Source: an uncultured Spirochaetota bacterium (GTDB taxonomy: Bacteria > Spirochaetota > Spirochaetia > SZUA-6 > Fen-1364). From it: a DNA stretch of 64,000 bases. This document shows positions 51,234 through 60,639 of this stretch, in pieces (position 1 is the first letter of the stretch; each line of letters starts with the position of its first letter). The stretch is from positions 64,001 through 128,000 of the forward strand of contig CAWAHW010000007.1 of NCBI GenBank assembly GCA_963781885.1, given 5' to 3'. Both the position numbers and the translations under genes were made by a program. The notes beneath the pieces are model-generated. The model worked only from the letters and a program-made list of their open reading frames with translations, was not told where the DNA came from and ran no database searches.

Positions 51234-51773
51234 TCAGGCTCCTGCGGTGCGCCGCACGGCAAAGGCGAGTATCATCTTTAGCATGTAGACGGGCCCGAAC
51301 CACGCGAGAAACGGGGTGGCAAGTCCGATGGGGAGCGCGATCACCGTTCCCACCACGACGAGAGAGACGGCTGTCGCCTGCTGCCTCCCGCCATCGGGCA
51401 TGACGTTCACGAGGCACGCCGCGGCGACGGTGTAGACGTAGAGGAAAGCCCAGTAGCCCGGCCTGCCGCCGAAAAGGAGAAAGAGCAGGAGAGGCTCGAC
51501 GATATGGCCGAATATAAAGAGCCACCGCAGGCCGGCGCGGGAGGCATAATAGCGGTCCGTGCCCGGCGCGAAGCACATCACCGCCCCGCCGCTCACGTCC
51601 GCCGCCACCAGGAAAAGAAGCAGCGCCTTCCACCAGGCAAGGCCTTCCACCCGCGACCACGCGAAGACGAGCGCAAGGACGCCGAAGACGGCACCAACGC
51701 CGTACGCGAGAAGCAGATCGAACGCAGTGGCACTCTCCCCGTGCAGGAGGTGCAGGATTCGCGGAACGCGCAT
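51234..51773 (-). CDS. Hypothetical membrane protein
   Basis: About 6 TM segments with a DxxGG motif. Confidence 0.65.
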   Translation of the reverse strand: MRVPRILHLLHGESATAFDLLLAYGVGAVFGVLALVFAWSRVEGLAWWKALLLFLVAADVSGGAVMCFAPGTDRYYASRAGLRWLFIFGHIVEPLLLFLLFGGRPGYWAFLYVYTVAAACLVNVMPDGGRQQATAVSLVVVGTVIALPIGLATPFLAWFGPVYMLKMILAFAVRRTAGA

Positions 51774-51860
51774 TTCTCTCCCCGGCAGTGCCACGGTGCT
51801 CCCTTCTGCTGCGAGTGTAGCGGCGTCGGTCCGGAGCTGTCAACGAAGTGTCCGACCTCA

Positions 51861-51889
51861 TTGCCGCCGGTGGCGGCTGGCGGTATACT
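51861..51889 (+). promoter_or_regulatory. sigma70 promoter for the uORF-secA2 transcript (predicted leaderless)
   Basis: TTGCCG-N17-TATACT, 6 nt before GTG at 51896. Confidence 0.65.
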
Positions 51890-51895
51890 GGTGAG

Positions 51896-52129
51896 GTGAA
51901 GGGCTCGCGCAGGATTTCCGTCATTCTCGTCAACACGATGCTCGTCTTCTGCGCGCTCTTCCTGATCGCCGCCCTGAGCACGGGGGGAATGGCCGTACTG
52001 GCCATCCTTTCCGTGGTCATATCGCTTGCGGCTCTCATCTTTGTCTCTTTCCGCCCCCGCACGCCCGCACTGCTTTCCCTGCGCGCCGCGCATCGGCGCT
52101 TCTCCTCCCGCTCGCCTCCGCGTTTCTAA
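51896..52129 (+). CDS. 77-aa two-TM leader protein ending RSPP; candidate translation arrest peptide
   Basis: MKGSRR-TM1-TM2-RPRTPALLSLRAAHRRFSSRSPPRF*; ends 53 nt before secA2. Confidence 0.7.
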   Translation: MKGSRRISVILVNTMLVFCALFLIAALSTGGMAVLAILSVVISLAALIFVSFRPRTPALLSLRAAHRRFSSRSPPRF

Positions 52130-52182
52130 ACCTTCGCTTCACGCTGCTTTCGCGGCAGTCTGCGCAAAAACACGGAGGGTTT

Positions 52183-54530
52183 ATGAAGAACGGGAAGAAG
52201 CGCGGCGTGACGCCGCGGCAGAAGCTTGCCTACACGCTCAGCACGGCGCGCGGCGTTCCGATCGAATACGACCTGCGGCCGTACCAGGCGTCGGTCCGGG
52301 CCATACGGGCGCTCGCGATGGAGAACGAAAGCGATGCATCGATTGGGAGAAGGGCGGAGGCGCTTCGCGTCCGGCTGCGCGGGGGAGGCGACCCGCAGGC
52401 CGAGCTGCGCGAATGTTTCGCCCTCGCGGCGGAGGCCTGCCGCCGCCGGTTGGGCATGCGGCCGTTCGACGGGCAGCTCGTGGCGGGGATTGCCCTGCAC
52501 GCCGGCAAGCTCGCCCAGATGCCCACGGGGGAGGGCAAGACGCTCGCCGCGGTTTTCCCCGCCTGTCTGGTCGCGCTTGGCGGCCTCCACGTGCACGTCC
52601 TCACCGCGAACGACTATCTGGCGGGAAGGGACGCGCAATGGATGGGGCCGATCTACGGGCTGCTCGGCGTGCGCGTCGCGTCGATCGCCGCGGATTTCTC
52701 GCCCGCTGAAAGGAGGGCGGCATATGGCGCCGAGGTGACCTACCTCACCGCGCGCGAAGCGGGCTTCGACTACCTCCGCGACGGCCTGTGCTTCTCACCG
52801 GCGGACCTTGTGCAAGGGAGCCGGGAACGGGCGATCGTCGACGAGGCGGACTTTCTCCTCATCGACGAGGCGAGGGTCCCGCTCGTGATCGCCGGTGAGG
52901 CGGACCTCGACGTGGCTGCCCCGCTCCGCGCGGATGAGGTGGCCCGCTTCATGCACCGCGGCCGCGACTACGACGTGGACCGGGAAGCCAGGCGCATCGC
53001 GCTTCTCCCCGCGGGGCATCGTGCCGTCGAGGCGGCATTCGGCGTCGCCGGCATCCACGAGGAGACAGGGGCGCTGTGCTTCGCGCGCGTCTACGCGGCG
53101 CTTCATGCCCGCGAGCTCCTGCAGCGCGACGTCGATTACGTCGTCAAGGACGGCGCCATCGGCCTGGTGGACGAGCTCACGGGCAGGATCGCCGATCGGC
53201 GCCAGTGGCCCTGGGGGATCCAGGCAGCGCTGGAGGCGCGCGAGGGCCTTTCTCTCCGGGTCGAAGGCACGGTGTACGGGAGCATCACCATCCAGCACTT
53301 CATGGGGCTCTACGACTCCATCGCCGCCATGACCGCGACCGCCGTTCCCTCTGCCGTCGAGCTTTTCGAGGTCTATGGCCTTTCGACGGTGATCGTGCCG
53401 GCGGAGAAGCCGCTCCGCCGCATCGATGAGCCCGACGTCGTCTGCGCCACGCGCGCCGAAAAGACCGCGGCGCTCGGGCGGGAGATTGTCCGCTCCCACG
53501 CGGAAGGCCGTCCCGTGCTCGTGGGCACCGCATCGGTGCGCGAGTCGCGCGAGCTTGCGGAGCTGCTGCGCGCGGCGGGAGTCGCCTGCGACGTGCTCAA
53601 CGCAGCGGATGACGCGCGCGAGGCGGAGCTGATCGCGCGCGCCGGCGCCGGGGCGCCGTGACGATATCCACGAACATGGCCGGACGCGGAACGGACATCC
53701 GTCTCGACGCGGACCCGGCCGTCCTGGCCGCGGGGGGGCTCCTGGTGATCGGCACGAACCGGCACGAGAGCAGGCGCGTGGACGACCAGCTGCGCGGCCG
53801 GGCGGGCCGTCAGGGCGAGCCGGGCGCGTCGCGGTTCTTCGTGAGCCTCGAGGACCCGCTTTTCGAGCGCTACGGCGTGCGCGATTTCCTGCCGCGCGGC
53901 TGCCCGCTTTCGGACCCGCGCGTGCTGCGCGAGATCGACCGGGCGCAATCGATCATCGAGGCCCGTCACCATTCCATCCGCCGGTTGCTGCGCAAGTATT
54001 CCGCTCTCGTGGAGATGGACAGGCGTCACGTGCGCACGCTCCGCGACGCGGCGGTGCAGGAGGGCGCGCTCCCCGACGGCGTCGAACGGAGCCTGTCGAC
54101 CCCGGATGCCAGGCCTGCGGCGGTGGCGGCGTGGATCGCGCTCCTGGACTCGTTCTGGTCGGATCATCTCCTGCTGGTGGAGGAGGTGCGCGAAGGGATA
54201 CACCTCGAGCGCTACGCGGGACGCGACCCCGGCCTGGAGTATATTCACAGGGTCGGGGGGGCATTCGATCGGGGGCTTGCCGCCGTCGAGGAGAAGCTTT
54301 CCGCGGCGTGCGCCCGACTTGCCGACGATCCAGACGCCCTGGGCTTCCCGAGCATGGGAATCCGCGTTCCTTCGAGCACCTGGACCTACCAGGTCGACGA
54401 CGAGGTGCCCGTCCGGTTTTCCATCGCGGCAGATCTGGGCGGGATGGGCGCCGCACTGGCCGCCGGCCCGATCATGATCATCGAGAGGGTGGCGCGCGCA
54501 ATCAAGGAAGCGCGCGAGCGGCGCCGGTGA
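52183..54530 (+). CDS. secA2: Accessory SecA2-type translocase ATPase (frameshift near 53650)
   Basis: [34 protein letters not shown]; about 780 aa; C-terminal PSSTWTY resembles actinobacterial SecA2. Confidence 0.85.
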
Positions 54531-54562
54531 CAAAGCGTCCGCGGCCTATGGAAGAAGGCATT

Positions 54563-57500
54563 CTACCCCGATTTTTCCGGCGAGGGTGGAAGCGCCAGGA
54601 CCAGCCGCACCGTTTCGCAGAGGCGCTCGGCCGTGTACGGCTTCATGAGGAGGGCCTTGACCTCCTGCGCCGAGCTGCGGACCCATTCCTCGTCGATGAG
54701 GCCCGACGACAGGATGATGCGGACGTCGGGGTCAATCCGTTTCAGGATGCGGGCGGCTTCGATCCCGCTCATCTCGGGCATCGACATGTCGAGCACCACG
54801 GCACTGATGCTCCCGGCCGCCATCCGAAAGCGCTCGATGCCTTGCTCCGCGCTGACGGCCGTGATCACCCGGTAACCGCCGCGCTCGAGGATGCGCTCCG
54901 CGAGGCGGAGGATGGTCCGCTCGTCGTCGATCACGAGGATTGTCCCCGTGCCCGCGGGAGTCGCCGGCGCCTCCGCCCGTTCCCCCTCGCCGGACGCGTC
55001 CGCCTCGATCTCGGGGAGGTAGATGTCGAAGCTCGTGCCGATCCCGGGCGAGGAGAACACGCTGATGAACCCCCCGAGCTGCCGCACCGTGCCATCGGTC
55101 ATGGAGAGACCCAGGCCCGTGCCCACGTTCGCGCCCTTCGTGGTGAAGAAGGGCTCGAAGATGCGGCGGCGCGTCTCCTCGTTCATCCCGACGCCGGTGT
55201 CGGTGATCGACATGCGCACGTAGCGCGGCGCGCTGCCCGCCTCGGGTACGGTTTTCCGCAGCTCCGCGCTGTTCTCCACGCGCATGCATTCGATGAGGAG
55301 CGTTCCGCCCTGGCGCGCATCAGGCGCCCGCATGATCGTCATCGCGTGCATCGCATTGAGGCAGACGTTCAGGAGCGCCTGTTCCAGGCGCGAGGGCTCG
55401 GCGCGCACCCACATCCGCTCCTCGGTATGGCCGACCTCGATCACGACGCTCTTGGGAAAGCCGTTGCGGCAAAGGGCTTCGACGCTCCGCAGGCACGCAT
55501 TCACGTCCACGGCGGCAAGCTCCATCTCCTGTTTGCGGCCGATCGCCAGGAGCTGCTTGATCAGGGCCGCCGCCCTTGAGGCCGCCTGGAGCGCCGTGTC
55601 CAGGCACTCCATTGCCTCTTCGGTCTGGCCGATGCTCTCCGTCGACAGGATGGCTCGCAGGAGGCTCAGGCTGCCGGTGATACCGACGAGGATGTTGTTG
55701 AAGTCGTGGGCGATGCCGCTCGTGAGGGTGCCGATGGCCTCCATCTTCTGCGCGTGGAAGAGCTTCGCCTCGATGCGCTTGTTCTCCTCCTCCGCCCGCA
55801 CGCCCTCGGTCACGTCCTGCGCAATGGCGGCGAAGCGCTTGCCCCGCGCCGTGCGCACCGCGAAGGACACCTGGCGCGCGATGATGCGGCTCCCGTCGGC
55901 CCGCTCCATCTCGACCTGCGCCGGCGGCGCGGTGCCGGGGCCCTCCCGGCGCATCGTTTCCCAGAGATGCCCGCGGAGCGCCGCCACGCCGGAAGGCGTC
56001 CTGCGCTCGCGCGGCAGCAGCCGCACCATCATGTCCACGTAGCGCGCGCCCACCGCCTCGCCCCGGGGAATCAGCGTCATCTGCTCCGCCGCGGGGTTCC
56101 ATTCGACGATGCGCCCATCCTCGTCGGTCATGGTGACCGCATCCAGCGTCTGTTCGAAGAAAGCGCGCAGGCGTTCCTCGCTGTCGGCCACGGCGCGTTC
56201 GGCGATCCGACGCTCGGTGATGTCGCGCGCGATGCCCTGCGTGCCCACGAACGCCTTTTTTCCCGACTGCGCGTCGGCGACGTAGAGGCCCTCCGCCTGG
56301 ACGAGAAAGACGGGAAGGGGAGAGACGGTAGCGGCGGCAGCCGTTTCTCCCCGCGTCTCCGCGGCGAACAGGCGGAGCTCGAGGGAACGGGTGCTGCGTG
56401 GGCCGGTCCGCCGCTCGTTCAGCCGATAGACCGCGTTGCGGCGATCGTCGGGGTGGACGTAATCGAGGATCGGCCGTCCCAGCATCTGGACCGGGTCGTG
56501 ACCGTAGCGGCGCACCGCGTCGTTCACGAACGTGATGGCCCCTGCGCGGTCCAGGCGATAGATGATGTCGTAGGCGGAGAACAGGATGGAGGCGATCTCC
56601 TTCTGCGACTGCGCGAGCGCGCTGCGCGCCTGCTCCAGCGCCCTGTTCTGCGCCACTGCCTGCGCCGCCTGCTCCCGGATCTTTTCCTCCGCGTCCACGA
56701 GCGCCGTGATGTCCCGGCTCTCCGCGACCATGAACTCCACGCTTCCGCGGGCGCCCCGCACGGGGGACAGGGAGAAGGCGAATGTCCGTATGCTCCCGTC
56801 CCTGGCGGCGTGGCGCGACTGCCGTTGCACCGACTCGCCGTTGCGGACGCGCGCCACGGCCTTTTTAAGGGCCGCCTGCTCCTCGGGAAGGCTGCTCCAC
56901 ACGGGAAGACTCCACGCCGGGGTCCCCTTCATCTCCGCGAGACTGGCCCCCGCGAAACGCAGCGCAGCCGCATTTGCCGAGATGACCCGTCCCTCCGTGT
57001 CCCAGAGCCCGATGAGCTGGACGGTGCTGTCGAAGATGGCGGCGAGCCTCCTCTCGGTCCGGTCGACGCGGTCGGAAAGAGCCGCCGTGTTGGCCATCTC
57101 GTCGGCGGCGCGTACGCCGAGGATCACGAGCGTCGCGGTGAGCGCCGTTTCCCGAAGGGGCAGCGAGCGCAGGTGGAAGGCGATCAGCGCCGCGTCGTGC
57201 ATCGTCGCGAGGAAGAGCACGAGAAAGGCCGCCAGGGCGCGCCAGGCGGGGGCCTTGTCGGCGCGGGAAAGCTGCCGGCAGGCCATCGCGAATAGGGCAA
57301 CGAACATGCCAAGCACGAGCGCGGCGAATGCATACCCGGCGACGCCATAGTCCCCGTCGAGCATCGACAGCCGTTCTCCCCAGGGGAGCTGCAAGGCGAC
57401 GATGCCCCTGACGGTGCGGTAGACGAGCGAAGGGGAGATGAGCTGCCCGATGCCGAGCGCGGTGAAGCACGCGCCGAATGGCAGGAGAAGACGCGGGAGG

Positions 57501-57775
57501 CGGATCCTCGTGGGTAGCGCAAAAAGCCAGAGCAGGCAGAGGCAGAAACCCTCGGTCGCGAACATCTGCAGCCGGCCGAGGGCGAGAGAGCCGGCGGCGC
57601 TCGCGGCCTGGTAGAGCGCGATGCTGAATATAATGGAGGCAACGAGCAGGAACGACGCAAGGGCGAGCGCGCCGGAATCAGCCCTGCGCGCCCGCAATGC
57701 GAGCTGCGCCTGATAGACCCCTGAGATGAAGCTGATGCCCGCCAGGGCGCTGAGATACATGAGAAAGGGAGACAT
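54563..57775 (-). CDS. Membrane multi-PAS hybrid histidine kinase
   Basis: About 7 TM segments, three PAS domains, IAHDFNN, GTGLGL, VLDMSMP. Confidence 0.9.
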   Translation of the reverse strand: MSPFLMYLSALAGISFISGVYQAQLALRARRADSGALALASFLLVASIIFSIALYQAASAAGSLALGRLQMFATEGFCLCLLWLFALPTRIRLPRLLLPFGACFTALGIGQLISPSLVYRTVRGIVALQLPWGERLSMLDGDYGVAGYAFAALVLGMFVALFAMACRQLSRADKAPAWRALAAFLVLFLATMHDAALIAFHLRSLPLRETALTATLVILGVRAADEMANTAALSDRVDRTERRLAAIFDSTVQLIGLWDTEGRVISANAAALRFAGASLAEMKGTPAWSLPVWSSLPEEQAALKKAVARVRNGESVQRQSRHAARDGSIRTFAFSLSPVRGARGSVEFMVAESRDITALVDAEEKIREQAAQAVAQNRALEQARSALAQSQKEIASILFSAYDIIYRLDRAGAITFVNDAVRRYGHDPVQMLGRPILDYVHPDDRRNAVYRLNERRTGPRSTRSLELRLFAAETRGETAAAATVSPLPVFLVQAEGLYVADAQSGKKAFVGTQGIARDITERRIAERAVADSEERLRAFFEQTLDAVTMTDEDGRIVEWNPAAEQMTLIPRGEAVGARYVDMMVRLLPRERRTPSGVAALRGHLWETMRREGPGTAPPAQVEMERADGSRIIARQVSFAVRTARGKRFAAIAQDVTEGVRAEEENKRIEAKLFHAQKMEAIGTLTSGIAHDFNNILVGITGSLSLLRAILSTESIGQTEEAMECLDTALQAASRAAALIKQLLAIGRKQEMELAAVDVNACLRSVEALCRNGFPKSVVIEVGHTEERMWVRAEPSRLEQALLNVCLNAMHAMTIMRAPDARQGGTLLIECMRVENSAELRKTVPEAGSAPRYVRMSITDTGVGMNEETRRRIFEPFFTTKGANVGTGLGLSMTDGTVRQLGGFISVFSSPGIGTSFDIYLPEIEADASGEGERAEAPATPAGTGTILVIDDERTILRLAERILERGGYRVITAVSAEQGIERFRMAAGSISAVVLDMSMPEMSGIEAARILKRIDPDVRIILSSGLIDEEWVRSSAQEVKALLMKPYTAERLCETVRLVLALPPSPEKSG

Positions 57776-57803: not shown

Positions 57804-60639
57804 TCATGCCTTCTGGAGCCAGCCCGTCCCGCAGATGCCGGTGAAAGGACAGCGCGGGCAGGCCGCCTTCAAGTCCGCGGCGGGCAAGAAAGGGACATCG
57901 GGTGAGACGATCTCGGCGAGCAGCCCGTGTATCACCCCTTCCAGGAGAGGCCAGCCGGTCTCTGCCTCCTGGGGTGATGCGAACAGGGGGAGCTCGATCT
58001 GGTCGTCCATCTCCGTCCTGCCCAGGAGCAGGAACATCGCCGTCACCTCGGCGGGATTCCTCCCTGTCTCCGCCGCATGGAGGAGCACGTACAGGGGGAG
58101 CTGGAGCGTCGGGATGGCAAGGCCCCAGGTGGTGCGATCGCCCGGCACGAGCTTCTTCATCCTGATGGCGTAGGCGCCGCGGTGCGCCGAGGTCTTGTAG
58201 TCGACGAGCACCGGCCGCCCGTCCCTGCTCTCCACGGCGTCCAGCCTGCCGCGCAGCTTGAAATCACCCGTCGATGCGGCGGTCGTGTGCTCCAGCGATG
58301 CGATCGTCACCGCGTGTTTCCGCAGGAGCCCGGCCATGTAGCCGGTAAGGAAAGCGGCGAGATGCCCGCGTATCTGGTCCCTCAGGAGACGGTTGCCGCC
58401 GGAGTCCGCGGAGCCGAAACGCTTTTCGAACATCACGTCCACCAGGTGCGTCATGGCCGCGGCATCCAGGTCCTCGGCCGTCAGGGGGCGGCCCGTGCGG
58501 GGGGAGAAATAACGGAACAGAACGTCGTGGACGAAGATGCCGACGTCCACGGCCTCCACGTCCCCCGTGTTCTCCTCCCGCTCGCCCAGGTCGAGCACCG
58601 TCTGGTAGTAGAAACGCAGGGGGCACCGCAGGTAGGCATCGAGTGAGGTCGCACTGTAGGTGCGCGCACGCAGCCACGCCACAACGGCGGGAGTCTTCGC
58701 GATGGGCGTCGGGGGGGCGTGGGCCAGGGTGACGCGATACTGGATGGGCTGGACGAACGCCGCTTCCTCCACGGTTGATTCCGCCTTCTGCCTATCCCAG
58801 AGCAGGCGCTCCACGAAACGCGACCTTTCCGCGTCGCCGCTCGTCCTCGAATAGAGGTGCAGCTCCCGCGCCCCCGCCGTCATGAGCGCGAAGTGATACG
58901 CGGCGATATCCTCCCTGTCCTGGTACGTGGAGAGTCCGAGTGACTTCCGCACGCCAAAGGGCAGGAGCGAGCTCTCGGCGCCGGTCTCGGGAAGGCTTCC
59001 CTCGTTGGCGTCGAGGATGAAGATCCGGTCGAACAGGAGATTGCGCGTCTCCAGGGCGCCGAGCACCTGCAGCCCGTGCAGGGGAGTCCCGGGAAAGGGG
59101 AGGTAGCAGGCGGCCAGGTACCGGCGCAGGAGCAGGAAGTAGCTTCCCGTGTCGGTGAAGGATTTCTCCGCCATGAGCGACCGCGCGATCGCTTCCAGCG
59201 ATCGCACGAATGCTTCCGAGAAGGGCGTGAAGTAGGGATGATCGCGCGCCGTGCTCTGGTCGTGCACCCAGGAGATGAGCGAGATGCAGCGTTCCGCGAA
59301 GACGCGCACGCGGGGAAAGGAGCGGAAGCTGCGGATCGTCCGCTCGTGGATGTCGGCGAGGTGCGCGCGGAGCGCCCGCGCGGCGGCGGCCGCGTCCCCC
59401 TCGGCCAATCTCCCGGCGGCATCGTCGAACAGCGCGCTGTCGGATTCGATTTCTTCCAGCGTCGCGAACCGTCTCGTCCGCTCCGCCGCGAGCCTCTCTT
59501 CCAGGGTGTGGAAAAGGACGCGCGTCGCTTCCGCCGACTGCCCGAGGCGTATGTTTTTCACGTAGGGATGCAGCGCAAAGGCAAGGTACGCCGGGCAGGT
59601 AGACACGCTCCCCGTCCATTGTGCCGACCAGCTCCATGAGATCGTTCAGGAATCCATAGAGCGGCGTCCTCTGGAGCGGGTAGGGAAGCGAGACATTGTA
59701 GCTTTCGGGCTCGAAACGGGACAGGCAGTGGCGCAGGAGGGGGAAAAGCGTGTCAGGCCGGGGAAGGACGATCAGCGTTCCGTCGTCCGGCCCCGAGAGC
59801 GCGGCGTTCACCGCGAAAACCTGGCCATGCGTGTCCGGGCTGCTGAAAAACCGGGTCGCGAGGCTCCTCGGGGCTTCCGCCTCCGCCGCGCGGGGGGGAA
59901 GGCCGAAGTCCTTCATCGTCTCGCGCAGGAGCGGGCCCTCCTGGAGCACCATCGCCACCGCCGGCCAAGCGCCCAGGACCCGGAGGAGGCGGCGCTCGGC
60001 ATTGGTGAGCGCGCAGAAGCCGGCGAGGATGATCGGCCCTGTCCCGGGAAGATCGTCGGGGCCCAGACGCTCTCCCGCCTCCCGGTAGCGCATCGAGCGG
60101 GTCGAAAGCTCCTGTTCTGCCACCACCCGGTAGAACGCGGCATAGAAACGGGCCATGCCGAGCAGGCGCTCCCGGGAGCCGGCAGGCACCTCCTCTTCCA
60201 CGAGGGGCTGGACGTCGGCCACGGCGCGCTCAGCGACACCCTCGATGAGGAGCTCCTCCAGGTCTCCGTAGATCCGTGTTCCCAGCGAGAAGAAGCTGTC
60301 GAGGGTCATGAAGTTGGTGCCGCCGAGGGGATGCGGCGATGAAAGCTGGATGTCGTAGAGGATCGCCACCGCGTCGAGAAGCTCCAGCCGCGGCAGAAGC
60401 CTGCCCCGGCGCTCCTCCTGGCGCTCGAAGACATCGTCCACGAGCTCGTCCATCGACTGGATGACCGGCGGGATGAAGCTCCCCCCGGCATTCCGGGCGA
60501 GCCGTCGGCGGAGGAAGTGGGCGGGGCGCTTGCCGGGGAACACGACGCGCGCCTCGGCGAGCGGCGTTCCCGGCTGCTCCAGCATCAGCGCCACCTCGTC
60601 GATGAGAGACGCGCCGGCCGCAAGCACGGTGATGCTCAC
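57804..60639 (-). CDS. AddB-like inactive helicase plus PD-(D/E)xK nuclease with Fe-S cysteines (frameshift near 59595)
   Basis: SATSLDAYLRCP, GRLDAVE, VDYKT, CPRCPFTGIC. Confidence 0.85.

Follow-up and report, generated by a model that had tools for sequence, protein, structure and literature searches.

A probable RAPP-like arrest leader upstream of a divergent SecA paralogue in an uncultured Spirochaetota bacterium

A 64,000 nt stretch of the genome of an uncultured Spirochaetota bacterium (contig CAWAHW010000007.1, positions 64,001 to 128,000; hereafter the window) carries, directly before a gene for a second SecA-like ATPase, a short upstream open reading frame (uORF; ORF for open reading frames in general) ending in R-S-P-P-R-F, and this raises the question of whether the uORF encodes an arrest peptide that controls translation of the SecA paralogue. 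The comparison of the locus with its relatives indicates that the uORF is likely an arrest leader of the RAPP-like ('RQH') type, at which a stalled ribosome would free the paralogue gene's Shine-Dalgarno (SD) sequence, and that the encoded peptide is very probably a ribosome-stalling sensor. The monitoring logic of such peptides was set by SecM, MifM and VemP, and the RAP(P/G) motif was brought in by ApcA, ApdA and ApdP (PMC7897499). For the RQH family, RAPP-like uORFs are described in nine phyla, with eight groups (uA_RQH) upstream of secA; RAPP-like uORFs in this position stall ribosomes in vivo as well as in vitro, RSPP was among the query motifs, and the SD stem-loop logic was published as well (Fujiwara et al., 2024, PMC10987492). 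Since RAPP-like uORFs of secA were published in 2024, the window leader adds to a known class and brings no new concept. The novelty suggested by the original prediction, which had read the locus from its sequence as a candidate new arrest-peptide circuit, is therefore overstated, RSPP variants before secA being already covered by that catalogue.

A membrane-hairpin reading frame ending in R-x-P-P

On re-reading of the sequence, GTG 51896 starts a frame of 77 codons (VKGSRRISVILVNTMLVFCALFLIAALSTGGMAVLAILSVVISLAALIFVSFRPRTPALLSLRAAHRRFSSRSPPRF) with a TAA stop at 52127-52129, leaving a gap of 53 nt to ATG 52183 of the SecA-like ORF. The peptide begins VKGSRRISV and ends FSSRSPPRF; its basic N-tail is followed by a hydrophobic block of 49 residues, in which two predicted transmembrane segments (TM1, I7-S28; TM2, M32-F52) are joined by a loop of 3 residues, and its last residues before the stop are R72-S73-P74-P75 and R-F. 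The distance from S28 to P74 is 46 residues and that from F52 to P74 is 22 residues, so that TM2 would still be within the exit tunnel when the ribosome arrests, the P and A sites at R-S-P-P being assigned by analogy with the ApdA and ApdP structures (PMC10951233). The start, the length, the gap, the two hydrophobic segments, the spacing of about 46 aa between TM1 and the prolines and the terminal RSPP-RF had all been named by the original prediction, and each was found exactly as described. A 93-aa reading from GTG 51848 is also possible, but that start lies upstream of the promoter. The peptide matched nothing in Pfam or NCBIfam, and a search of 51700-52400 against Rfam at E <= 1 returned no match.

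The upstream frames of seven orthologous loci, in which the SecA-like protein is 55-81% identical, were listed without a motif filter, and all seven contained a same-strand uORF with a hydrophobic N-terminal part and the same build, ending in RAPPRF, RAPPLC, RAPPLA, RAPPVF, RAPPLS, RGPPLHA or RGPPLNS before the stop. Scans of genomes and metagenome contigs added 160 loci, and among 161 loci a TM-bearing uORF with R[AGS]PP no more than 300 nt ahead of the SecA-like start was present in 30 (27 unique), comprising 18 RAPP, 7 RSPP and 2 RGPP forms; the RGPP positives L009 and L010 (L numbers are our locus handles) were left out of the 27-locus statistics. The motif is separated from the stop by 1-6 residues in 26 of these 27. 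In the 64% identical relative L113 (643-834), RAPPRF is kept and the stop is lost, so that the frame continues over another 59 codons and enters the start region of the SecA-like gene. Carriers include Aminicenantes-labelled loci and one Clostridia-labelled metagenome-assembled genome (MAG), and those of low G+C content (37-50%) retain the motif, which is thus not a by-product of G+C-rich coding. In the subclade around the window, 27 of 30 tree leaves carry the uORF, and in a set of 65 loci lacking a TM-bearing uORF a motif-bearing, non-hydrophobic ORF was found in only one (L098). The conservation of TM segments plus R[AGS]PP upstream of SecA2 homologues, which had been suggested as a check on the leader, was borne out in these loci. 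A profile search with the alignment of the 27 peptides returned 10 proteins, unnamed or called 'hypothetical protein' and functionally uninformative.

The geometry of the peptide is regular. Across the 27 unique loci the uORF peptides have 66-81 aa with a basic N-tail of 3-9 residues, and a hydropathy script resolved in all of them a hydrophobic block of 31-57 residues that corresponds to two TM segments and a tiny loop. This block ends 10-30 residues before the P-site Pro, with a basic tail between, and the end of TM1 was estimated to lie ~37-53 residues from the P site, so that TM2 would remain in the tunnel at arrest. Signal-to-arrest spacings in PMC10987492 have a median of 54 for MifM, with 71-133 for Sec-type monitors, and by this analogy the short, narrow spacing resembles YidC-type monitors more closely than Sec-type ones. 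Compared with the features by which the same source defines RAPP-like (RQH) membership, the window has the same-strand uORF beside a secA homologue, the N-terminal TM and the conserved C-terminal motif; the spacer of more than 30 residues is present when counted from TM1 (46) and not when counted from TM2 (22). In the peptide alignment the mean column identity is 23%, and only R72, P74 and P75 are invariant.

The position of the promoter is likewise shared. In the 3.3 kb of 51500-54800, 2 promoter-like sites were detected compared with 0.1 expected from shuffles, and the -10 element TATACT of the one before the uORF ends 6 nt upstream of GTG 51896, so that the transcript probably begins at or beside the start codon and the uORF is probably leaderless. 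Of the 27 unique loci, 3 could not be evaluated and 16 combine a TAnnnT hexamer, starting 12-13 nt before the predicted start, with the lack of an SD. In the available text of two catalogue papers on RAPP-type peptides, one of them PMC10987492, the word 'leaderless' has 0 occurrences.

Predicted pairing of the putative arrest codons with the SD of the SecA paralogue

The last codons of the uORF are complementary to the start region of the paralogue gene in two ways: CCTCCGCGTTT (52115-52125) pairs with AAACACGGAGG (52168-52178) with a single C/A mismatch, and TAAACCTTC (52127-52135) pairs with GAGGGTTTA (52175-52183) with a single U.G pair. Both complementarities had been pointed out beforehand and both are present, and the first is formed in the minimum free energy (MFE) fold of 52090-52200. 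CCU is the first Pro codon in 18 of the 27 loci, compared with 4.2 expected from the Pro codon use of the adjacent SecA gene, and 0 of 200,000 simulations reached 18; this bias produces CCUCC, the complement of GGAGG. At L036 and L117 the Pro codons are CCG-CCG, matching an SD of GGUGGAG. Partition-function folds indicated that the SD window pairs at P >= 0.5 with the -15..+15 footprint, the stretch covered by a ribosome stalled at RxP|P, in 17 of the 27 loci, and the mean pairing between SD and footprint was 0.47 versus 0.25 in synonymous recodings (27 loci; Wilcoxon 4e-6). At the window locus this probability was 0.71 versus a null mean of 0.06, and 0 of 60 recodings reached 0.71. Furthermore, duplexes of arrest site and SD averaged -16.4 kcal/mol for cognate and -13.9 kcal/mol for non-cognate pairs, and 0 of 100,000 permutations were as good. 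The covariation of the anti-SD stem, proposed earlier as a test, is seen in the excess of SD-footprint pairing over the recodings and in the stronger cognate duplexes. These comparisons suggest that the complementarity of arrest site and SD is under selection at the RNA level, which supports an SD hairpin, and the arrest codons CCU-CCN double as its predicted anti-SD. Collectively, the uORF, its motif, its geometry and its promoter position are conserved, and RNA-level selection is added to these. Transcription attenuation was rejected on finding no terminator-like site between the uORF and the SecA paralogue gene.

The same evidence bears on the notion that the uORF is a chance ORF and the stem a chance hairpin in G+C-rich intergenic DNA. 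The window does contain many spurious ORFs of similar size, 77-93-aa ORFs being frequent in this 68% G+C DNA, and its fold energy is unexceptional (z = -0.38, with 65 of 200 shuffles equally stable), so that the window locus alone is not convincing. The conservation in 7 of 7 orthologues and in 27 unique loci, including those of 37-50% G+C, refutes a chance ORF, and with the codon bias, the covariation and the near absence of motif ORFs from the loci without a TM-bearing uORF, the chance explanation retains a negligible probability.

The fold energy also counts against the arrest-leader reading itself, together with the following observations. In the folding check suggested by the original prediction, the first pairing was in the MFE structure and the stability was no greater than that of shuffles. 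In 10 of the 27 loci the main predicted partner of the SD is another stretch of the RNA. Masking the footprint brought the modelled unpaired fraction from SD to AUG up from 0.36 to 0.43, and 4 of the 27 loci gained at least 0.2; removal of all RNA 5' of P+15 gave 0.49, and 10 of the 27 gained at least 0.2. At L034, L035, L036, L038, L114 and L116 no opening is predicted. Stall-driven opening of the SD is therefore only modest in the thermodynamic model. The P values are overstated, because the 27 loci are kin and their SecA-like start codons were picked by inspection, and the invariance of R, P and P follows by construction from choosing the loci by motif. The close SecA paralogues at L055, L121, L125 and L161 (L055 duplicates L121) lack the uORF, and so does that at L199; RSPP is only partly permissive in ApdA and ApdP; a hairpin of two TM segments joined by 3 residues is no obvious client of SecA; and the target gene in the window is frameshifted by a 1-nt deletion relative to the orthologue L033, falling just after ARAG. 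As to the RSPP form, the Ala-to-Ser change is reported to retain part of the arrest activity of both peptides (PMC12992588).

That the uORF is a constitutive opener, in which Pro-Pro passage or a fixed pause couples translation of the two genes and neither insertion sensing nor force-dependent release takes part, would fit the position of the anti-SD in the last codons, where any passing ribosome melts the stem, and likewise the modest opening modelled for a stalled one; a published non-arresting uDF_RQH mutant kept some induction (PMC10987492). This explanation leaves without a cause the conserved two-TM hairpin at a narrow distance from the motif amid sequence drift, and it has no need for the invariant Arg at -2, as Pro-Pro alone would pause, and we regard it as unlikely. 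Even less probable is that the uORF encodes a small membrane protein with its own function, for example as a membrane partner or substrate of the SecA paralogue, and that R-x-P-P serves the mature peptide as a C-terminal motif instead of signalling a stall. Such a protein would explain why the uORF always accompanies this SecA paralogue, and the peptide would indeed enter the membrane once terminated; but conservation of only R, P and P, with drifting TM and loop sequences, is unlike an interaction partner, the CCU selection and the SD covariation act on RNA rather than protein, and RxPP is a known stalling motif that is under-represented (PMC12992588, which reports the under-representation in proteomes for RSPP). 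The arrest-leader reading best fits the comparative data, since motif, architecture and spacing are kept while the rest drifts, CCU-CCN codons are selected and the SD covaries. The original prediction is thus supported as to the kind of element and goes too far in calling the circuit new, and the SD opening on which it relied is modest in the model.

The SecA paralogue and its surroundings

In Pfam searches the ORF starting at 52183 matched SecA_DEAD (3e-82), SecA_PP_bind and P-loop_SecA. The genome (G000) has two SecA_DEAD loci, one on contig 5 (412 bits, canonical, ~900 aa), which lacks a comparable uORF, and the one in the window (277 bits). The gene in the window is thus an additional, divergent SecA, accessory in a loose sense only. 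For the intact orthologue L033 (786 aa) the top NCBIfam match was the mycobacterial SecA2 model, with 629 bits against a cut-off of 725. The SecA2 equivalog models scored were TIGR04221, TIGR03714, NF012136 and TIGR04397, and the other SecA2 cut-offs were also missed (460/930, 419/1100 and 554/1085 bits), as were those for SecA (619/814). The name 'secA2' given to the gene by the original prediction is therefore descriptive only: a second SecA beside the canonical one is present, and it falls below every SecA2 model cut-off.

In a tree of 152 SecA N-domains the window paralogue falls in a long-branched clade apart from the canonical SecAs, with members from Acidobacteriota, Bacillota and Planctomycetota, and its nearest loci are labelled Spirochaetaceae, Treponemataceae or Spirochaetia MAGs. 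Strong matches to the paralogue were found in 7 of 40 related genomes (genus 2/20, family 3/4, order 2/16) and in 1 of 400 genomes sampled evenly over the phylum (E <= 1e-130), the latter without the uORF, and its distribution is thus patchy. Within the clade, a sister acidobacterial group (L040-L047, L052-L054, L119-L148 and similar) has no arrest uORF; at its Acidobacteriota-labelled loci L044, L052, L119 and L140 the SecA paralogue stands beside a small copper-chaperone-like HMA gene (MTCGGCE, CopZ-like) on the same strand, ending 11-68 nt upstream. Paralogues of the same clade without an RxPP uORF also occur in Bacillota (L056-L060, L063, L068-L071, L073, L075, L078 and L084) and Planctomycetota (L061, L064, L077 and L097), in genomes that include Cohnella, Paenibacillus and Sporomusa; L056 has a hydrophobic upstream ORF, and a planctomycete class, uA_LPPP, has been published.

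The paralogue of the window lies in two frames, 52183-53661 and 53658-54530, a split that the original prediction had missed, where L033 has a single ORF of 786 aa. This split, seen against an 81% identical orthologue, and the apparent dispensability of the gene in most relatives, given the counts above, could mean that the circuit is a relic in this genome and the paralogue a true pseudogene made by the 1-nt deletion. We regard this as doubtful, though not negligible: each half shares 81-86% identity with the orthologue and keeps every motor motif, nothing is broken in the promoter, uORF, stem or SD, and a nuclease gene nearby is split alike. In this neighbouring gene, PD-(D/E)XK (AddB-like) and on the minus strand, the ORFs 57804-59606 and 58792-60639 overlap, where the relative L193 (1827-4664) has a single nuclease ORF of 946 aa, and the split is thus a second frameshift within 6 kb. 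Two split genes so close together hint at indel errors in the 7-contig assembly. The SecA paralogue is split either by such errors or as a real pseudogene, and the nuclease suggests the former; exact pieces of the contig in three public runs (52776-52926, 53272-53508 and 54195-54527) span neither the frameshift nor the uORF. Among the public sequencing runs, no RNA run is listed for the locus, and one DNA run contained 0.16 of the sampled words.

The flanking genes differ among relatives, and conserved partner genes were rejected. The product of the gene at 51234-51794 (minus strand), a 186-aa multi-TM protein, has no match in Pfam or NCBIfam; L113 and, in part, L033 are the only loci that share the gene, and being limited to the nearest relatives it is outside the conserved unit. 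The downstream genes of six orthologous loci have nothing in common beyond the SecA C-terminus, save between close pairs, and the conserved unit therefore consists of the uORF and SecA only. The end of a convergent minus-strand gene (54563-57775) lies 33 nt past the SecA paralogue; it encodes a hybrid sensor kinase of 1070 aa, with a multi-TM N-part followed by PAS, HisKA, HATPase_c and receiver domains. Of the six relatives examined, the five checked for the kinase gene (all but L193) do not have it beside the paralogue. Coordinates of the features are collected in Table 1.

Table 1. Features of the uORF-SecA locus in window coordinates, with the basis of each assignment.
Feature	Position	Strand	Basis
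Divergent promoter-like site, TTGACA-18-TACACT, serving the 186-aa membrane-protein gene	51814..51843	-	Promoter scan
Sigma-70-like promoter, TTGCCG-17 nt-TATACT	51861..51889	+	One of 2 promoter-like sites in 51500-54800
uORF, arrest-peptide candidate, 77 aa	51896..52129 (stop included)	+	ORF reading and conservation in relatives
TM1, I7-S28, after basic N-tail VKGSRR, predicted N-in	51914..51979	+	Sequence reading and hydropathy script
TM2, M32-F52, basic tail behind, predicted C-in	51989..52051	+	Sequence reading and hydropathy script
R72-S73-P74-P75 motif	52109..52120	+	R, P and P the sole invariant columns of the alignment (loci selected by motif)
Predicted anti-SD arm 1, CCUCCGCGUUU, Pro-Pro-Arg-Phe codons	52115..52125	+	Complementarity, MFE fold, CCU bias
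Alternative predicted anti-SD arm 2, UAAACCUUC, stop codon and 6 nt	52127..52135	+	Complementarity; unused in the MFE structure
Predicted small inner hairpin, GCUGC-UUUC-GCGGC, closing the loop of the long-range stem	52143..52156	+	MFE and centroid structures
3' arm of the predicted stem, with the SD region (GGAGGG 52174-52179) and the start codon (ATG 52183) of the SecA paralogue	52168..52185	+	Complementarity, folds
N-terminal part (492 aa) of the SecA-like ATPase, with DEAD-like motor, preprotein cross-linking domain and the beginning of the second P-loop domain	52183..53661	+	Pfam, NCBIfam
Frameshift site, 11 nt long against 12 in the 81% identical orthologue	53647..53657	+	Alignment to L033
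SecA-like ATPase, C-terminal 290 aa, other frame: rest of P-loop domain, wing/scaffold	53658..54530	+	Pfam and orthologue comparison

Relation to known arrest peptides and proposed mechanism

The closest known systems are the uA_RQH groups, in which, as in the window, a small unannotated uORF with an N-terminal TM or signal and R-x-P-P near its stop lies directly before a SecA homologue, and which likewise show no overall sequence similarity among groups and a patchy distribution. The window differs in that its target is a second, divergent SecA and its uORF looks leaderless; moreover, long and variable spacers are typical of the uA_RQH peptides described in the catalogue, whereas those of the window group are short and narrow (~37-53). 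The groups named in the main text are Pseudomonadales, Myxococcales, Bacteroidales_1, Bacteroidales_2, Desulfurobacteriales and Fimbriimonadales. Spirochaetes, Treponematales and Acidobacteria do not appear in the main texts of the catalogues or in the preprint, where two uA groups and the orphans are left to the supplements, and the window group is possibly already listed in those of PMC10987492. In the literature searched, arrest peptides were in no paper linked to Spirochaetes, to SecA2 (the apparent hits being superscript artefacts) or to leaderless starts. What is variant here is the accessory SecA target, the two-TM hairpin with short spacing and the probably leaderless start.

The SecM-secA pair of Enterobacteria has an arrest at R-A-G|P ahead of secA and a stem in which the SD of secA is hidden until the stalled ribosome disrupts it, comparable to what is proposed for the window. 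In contrast, SecM is unrelated in sequence, has ~170 aa with a cleavable signal and FxxxxWIxxxxGIRAGP, controls the housekeeping SecA and is exported, whereas the window peptide is putatively membrane-inserted; with no Pfam match, an RSPP motif and a two-TM hairpin at the N-terminus, membership of the SecM family was rejected. ApcA (Sakiyama et al., 2021, PMC7897499) resembles the window peptide in its one or two N-terminal TM segments, short extracytoplasmic part, cytoplasmic C-terminus and RAP-type motif, and in controlling a secondary paralogue of a localization factor; it differs in carrying RAPG rather than RxPP, in targeting YidC2 rather than SecA and in occurring in Actinobacteria. ApdA and ApdP are longer peptides encoded upstream of secDF in Actinobacteria and Alphaproteobacteria, and in one of the two solved peptides the RAP motif is at residues 131-133 (PMC10951233). 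As for the target, the accessory SecA2 proteins of Actinobacteria and Firmicutes are, like the window paralogue, shorter second SecAs beside a canonical one (786 aa in L033), whereas the window paralogue scores below every cut-off, forms its own clade and has no SecY2 or conserved neighbour genes in view.

The locus can be read as a two-gene unit of promoter, putatively leaderless uORF, predicted SD-sequestering stem and second (accessory-type) SecA, whose regulation may proceed as follows. The uORF product would be an N-in/C-in two-TM hairpin with a basic C-tail ending R-S-P-P-R-F, and at arrest TM1, with 46 residues between it and the P site, would have just emerged from the tunnel, with TM2, at 22 residues, inside. 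Targeting and insertion of TM1 would pull on the chain and release the arrest, after which termination would follow three codons later and the stem of CCUCCGCGUUU and AAACACGGAGG would close over the SD again. When insertion is slow, the stalled ribosome would cover the 5' arm with the Pro-Pro-Arg-Phe codons, leaving the SD free for longer, and the SecA paralogue would be made. We infer each of these steps, namely the stalling, its release by insertion, the pathway sensed and the rise in translation on SD opening.

It is possible, if less than probable, that the uORFs form a distinct and ancient lineage of leaderless two-TM-hairpin RxPP monitors, which accompany a single divergent SecA paralogue in several phyla (Spirochaetota, Acidobacteriota of the Aminicenantes type and the Clostridia-labelled MAG) and act as sensors of insertion stress, their short and narrow spacing being like that of YidC-type insertion sensors and unlike that of secretion sensors. 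If so, the SecA paralogue would be induced by membrane-insertion stress and would work in membrane-protein biogenesis, which would offer a first way into the function of a SecA clade that is so far uncharacterised. At the level of the family, a well-supported natural series of 27 unique RSPP, RAPP and RGPP sequences is added to the Sec-associated arrest peptides, from a phylum that the catalogue main texts leave unmentioned, and the peptide is tied to an uncharacterised SecA paralogue that is also present, with no such uORF before it, in Acidobacteriota, Bacillota and Planctomycetota. The regular geometry (66-81 aa, two TM, TM2 in the tunnel), the apparent leaderless start and the identity of the Pro-Pro codons with the anti-SD make a clean test system, in which it can be tested how stalls of the RAPP type are coupled to the initiation of translation, and what purpose the induction of a second SecA may serve.

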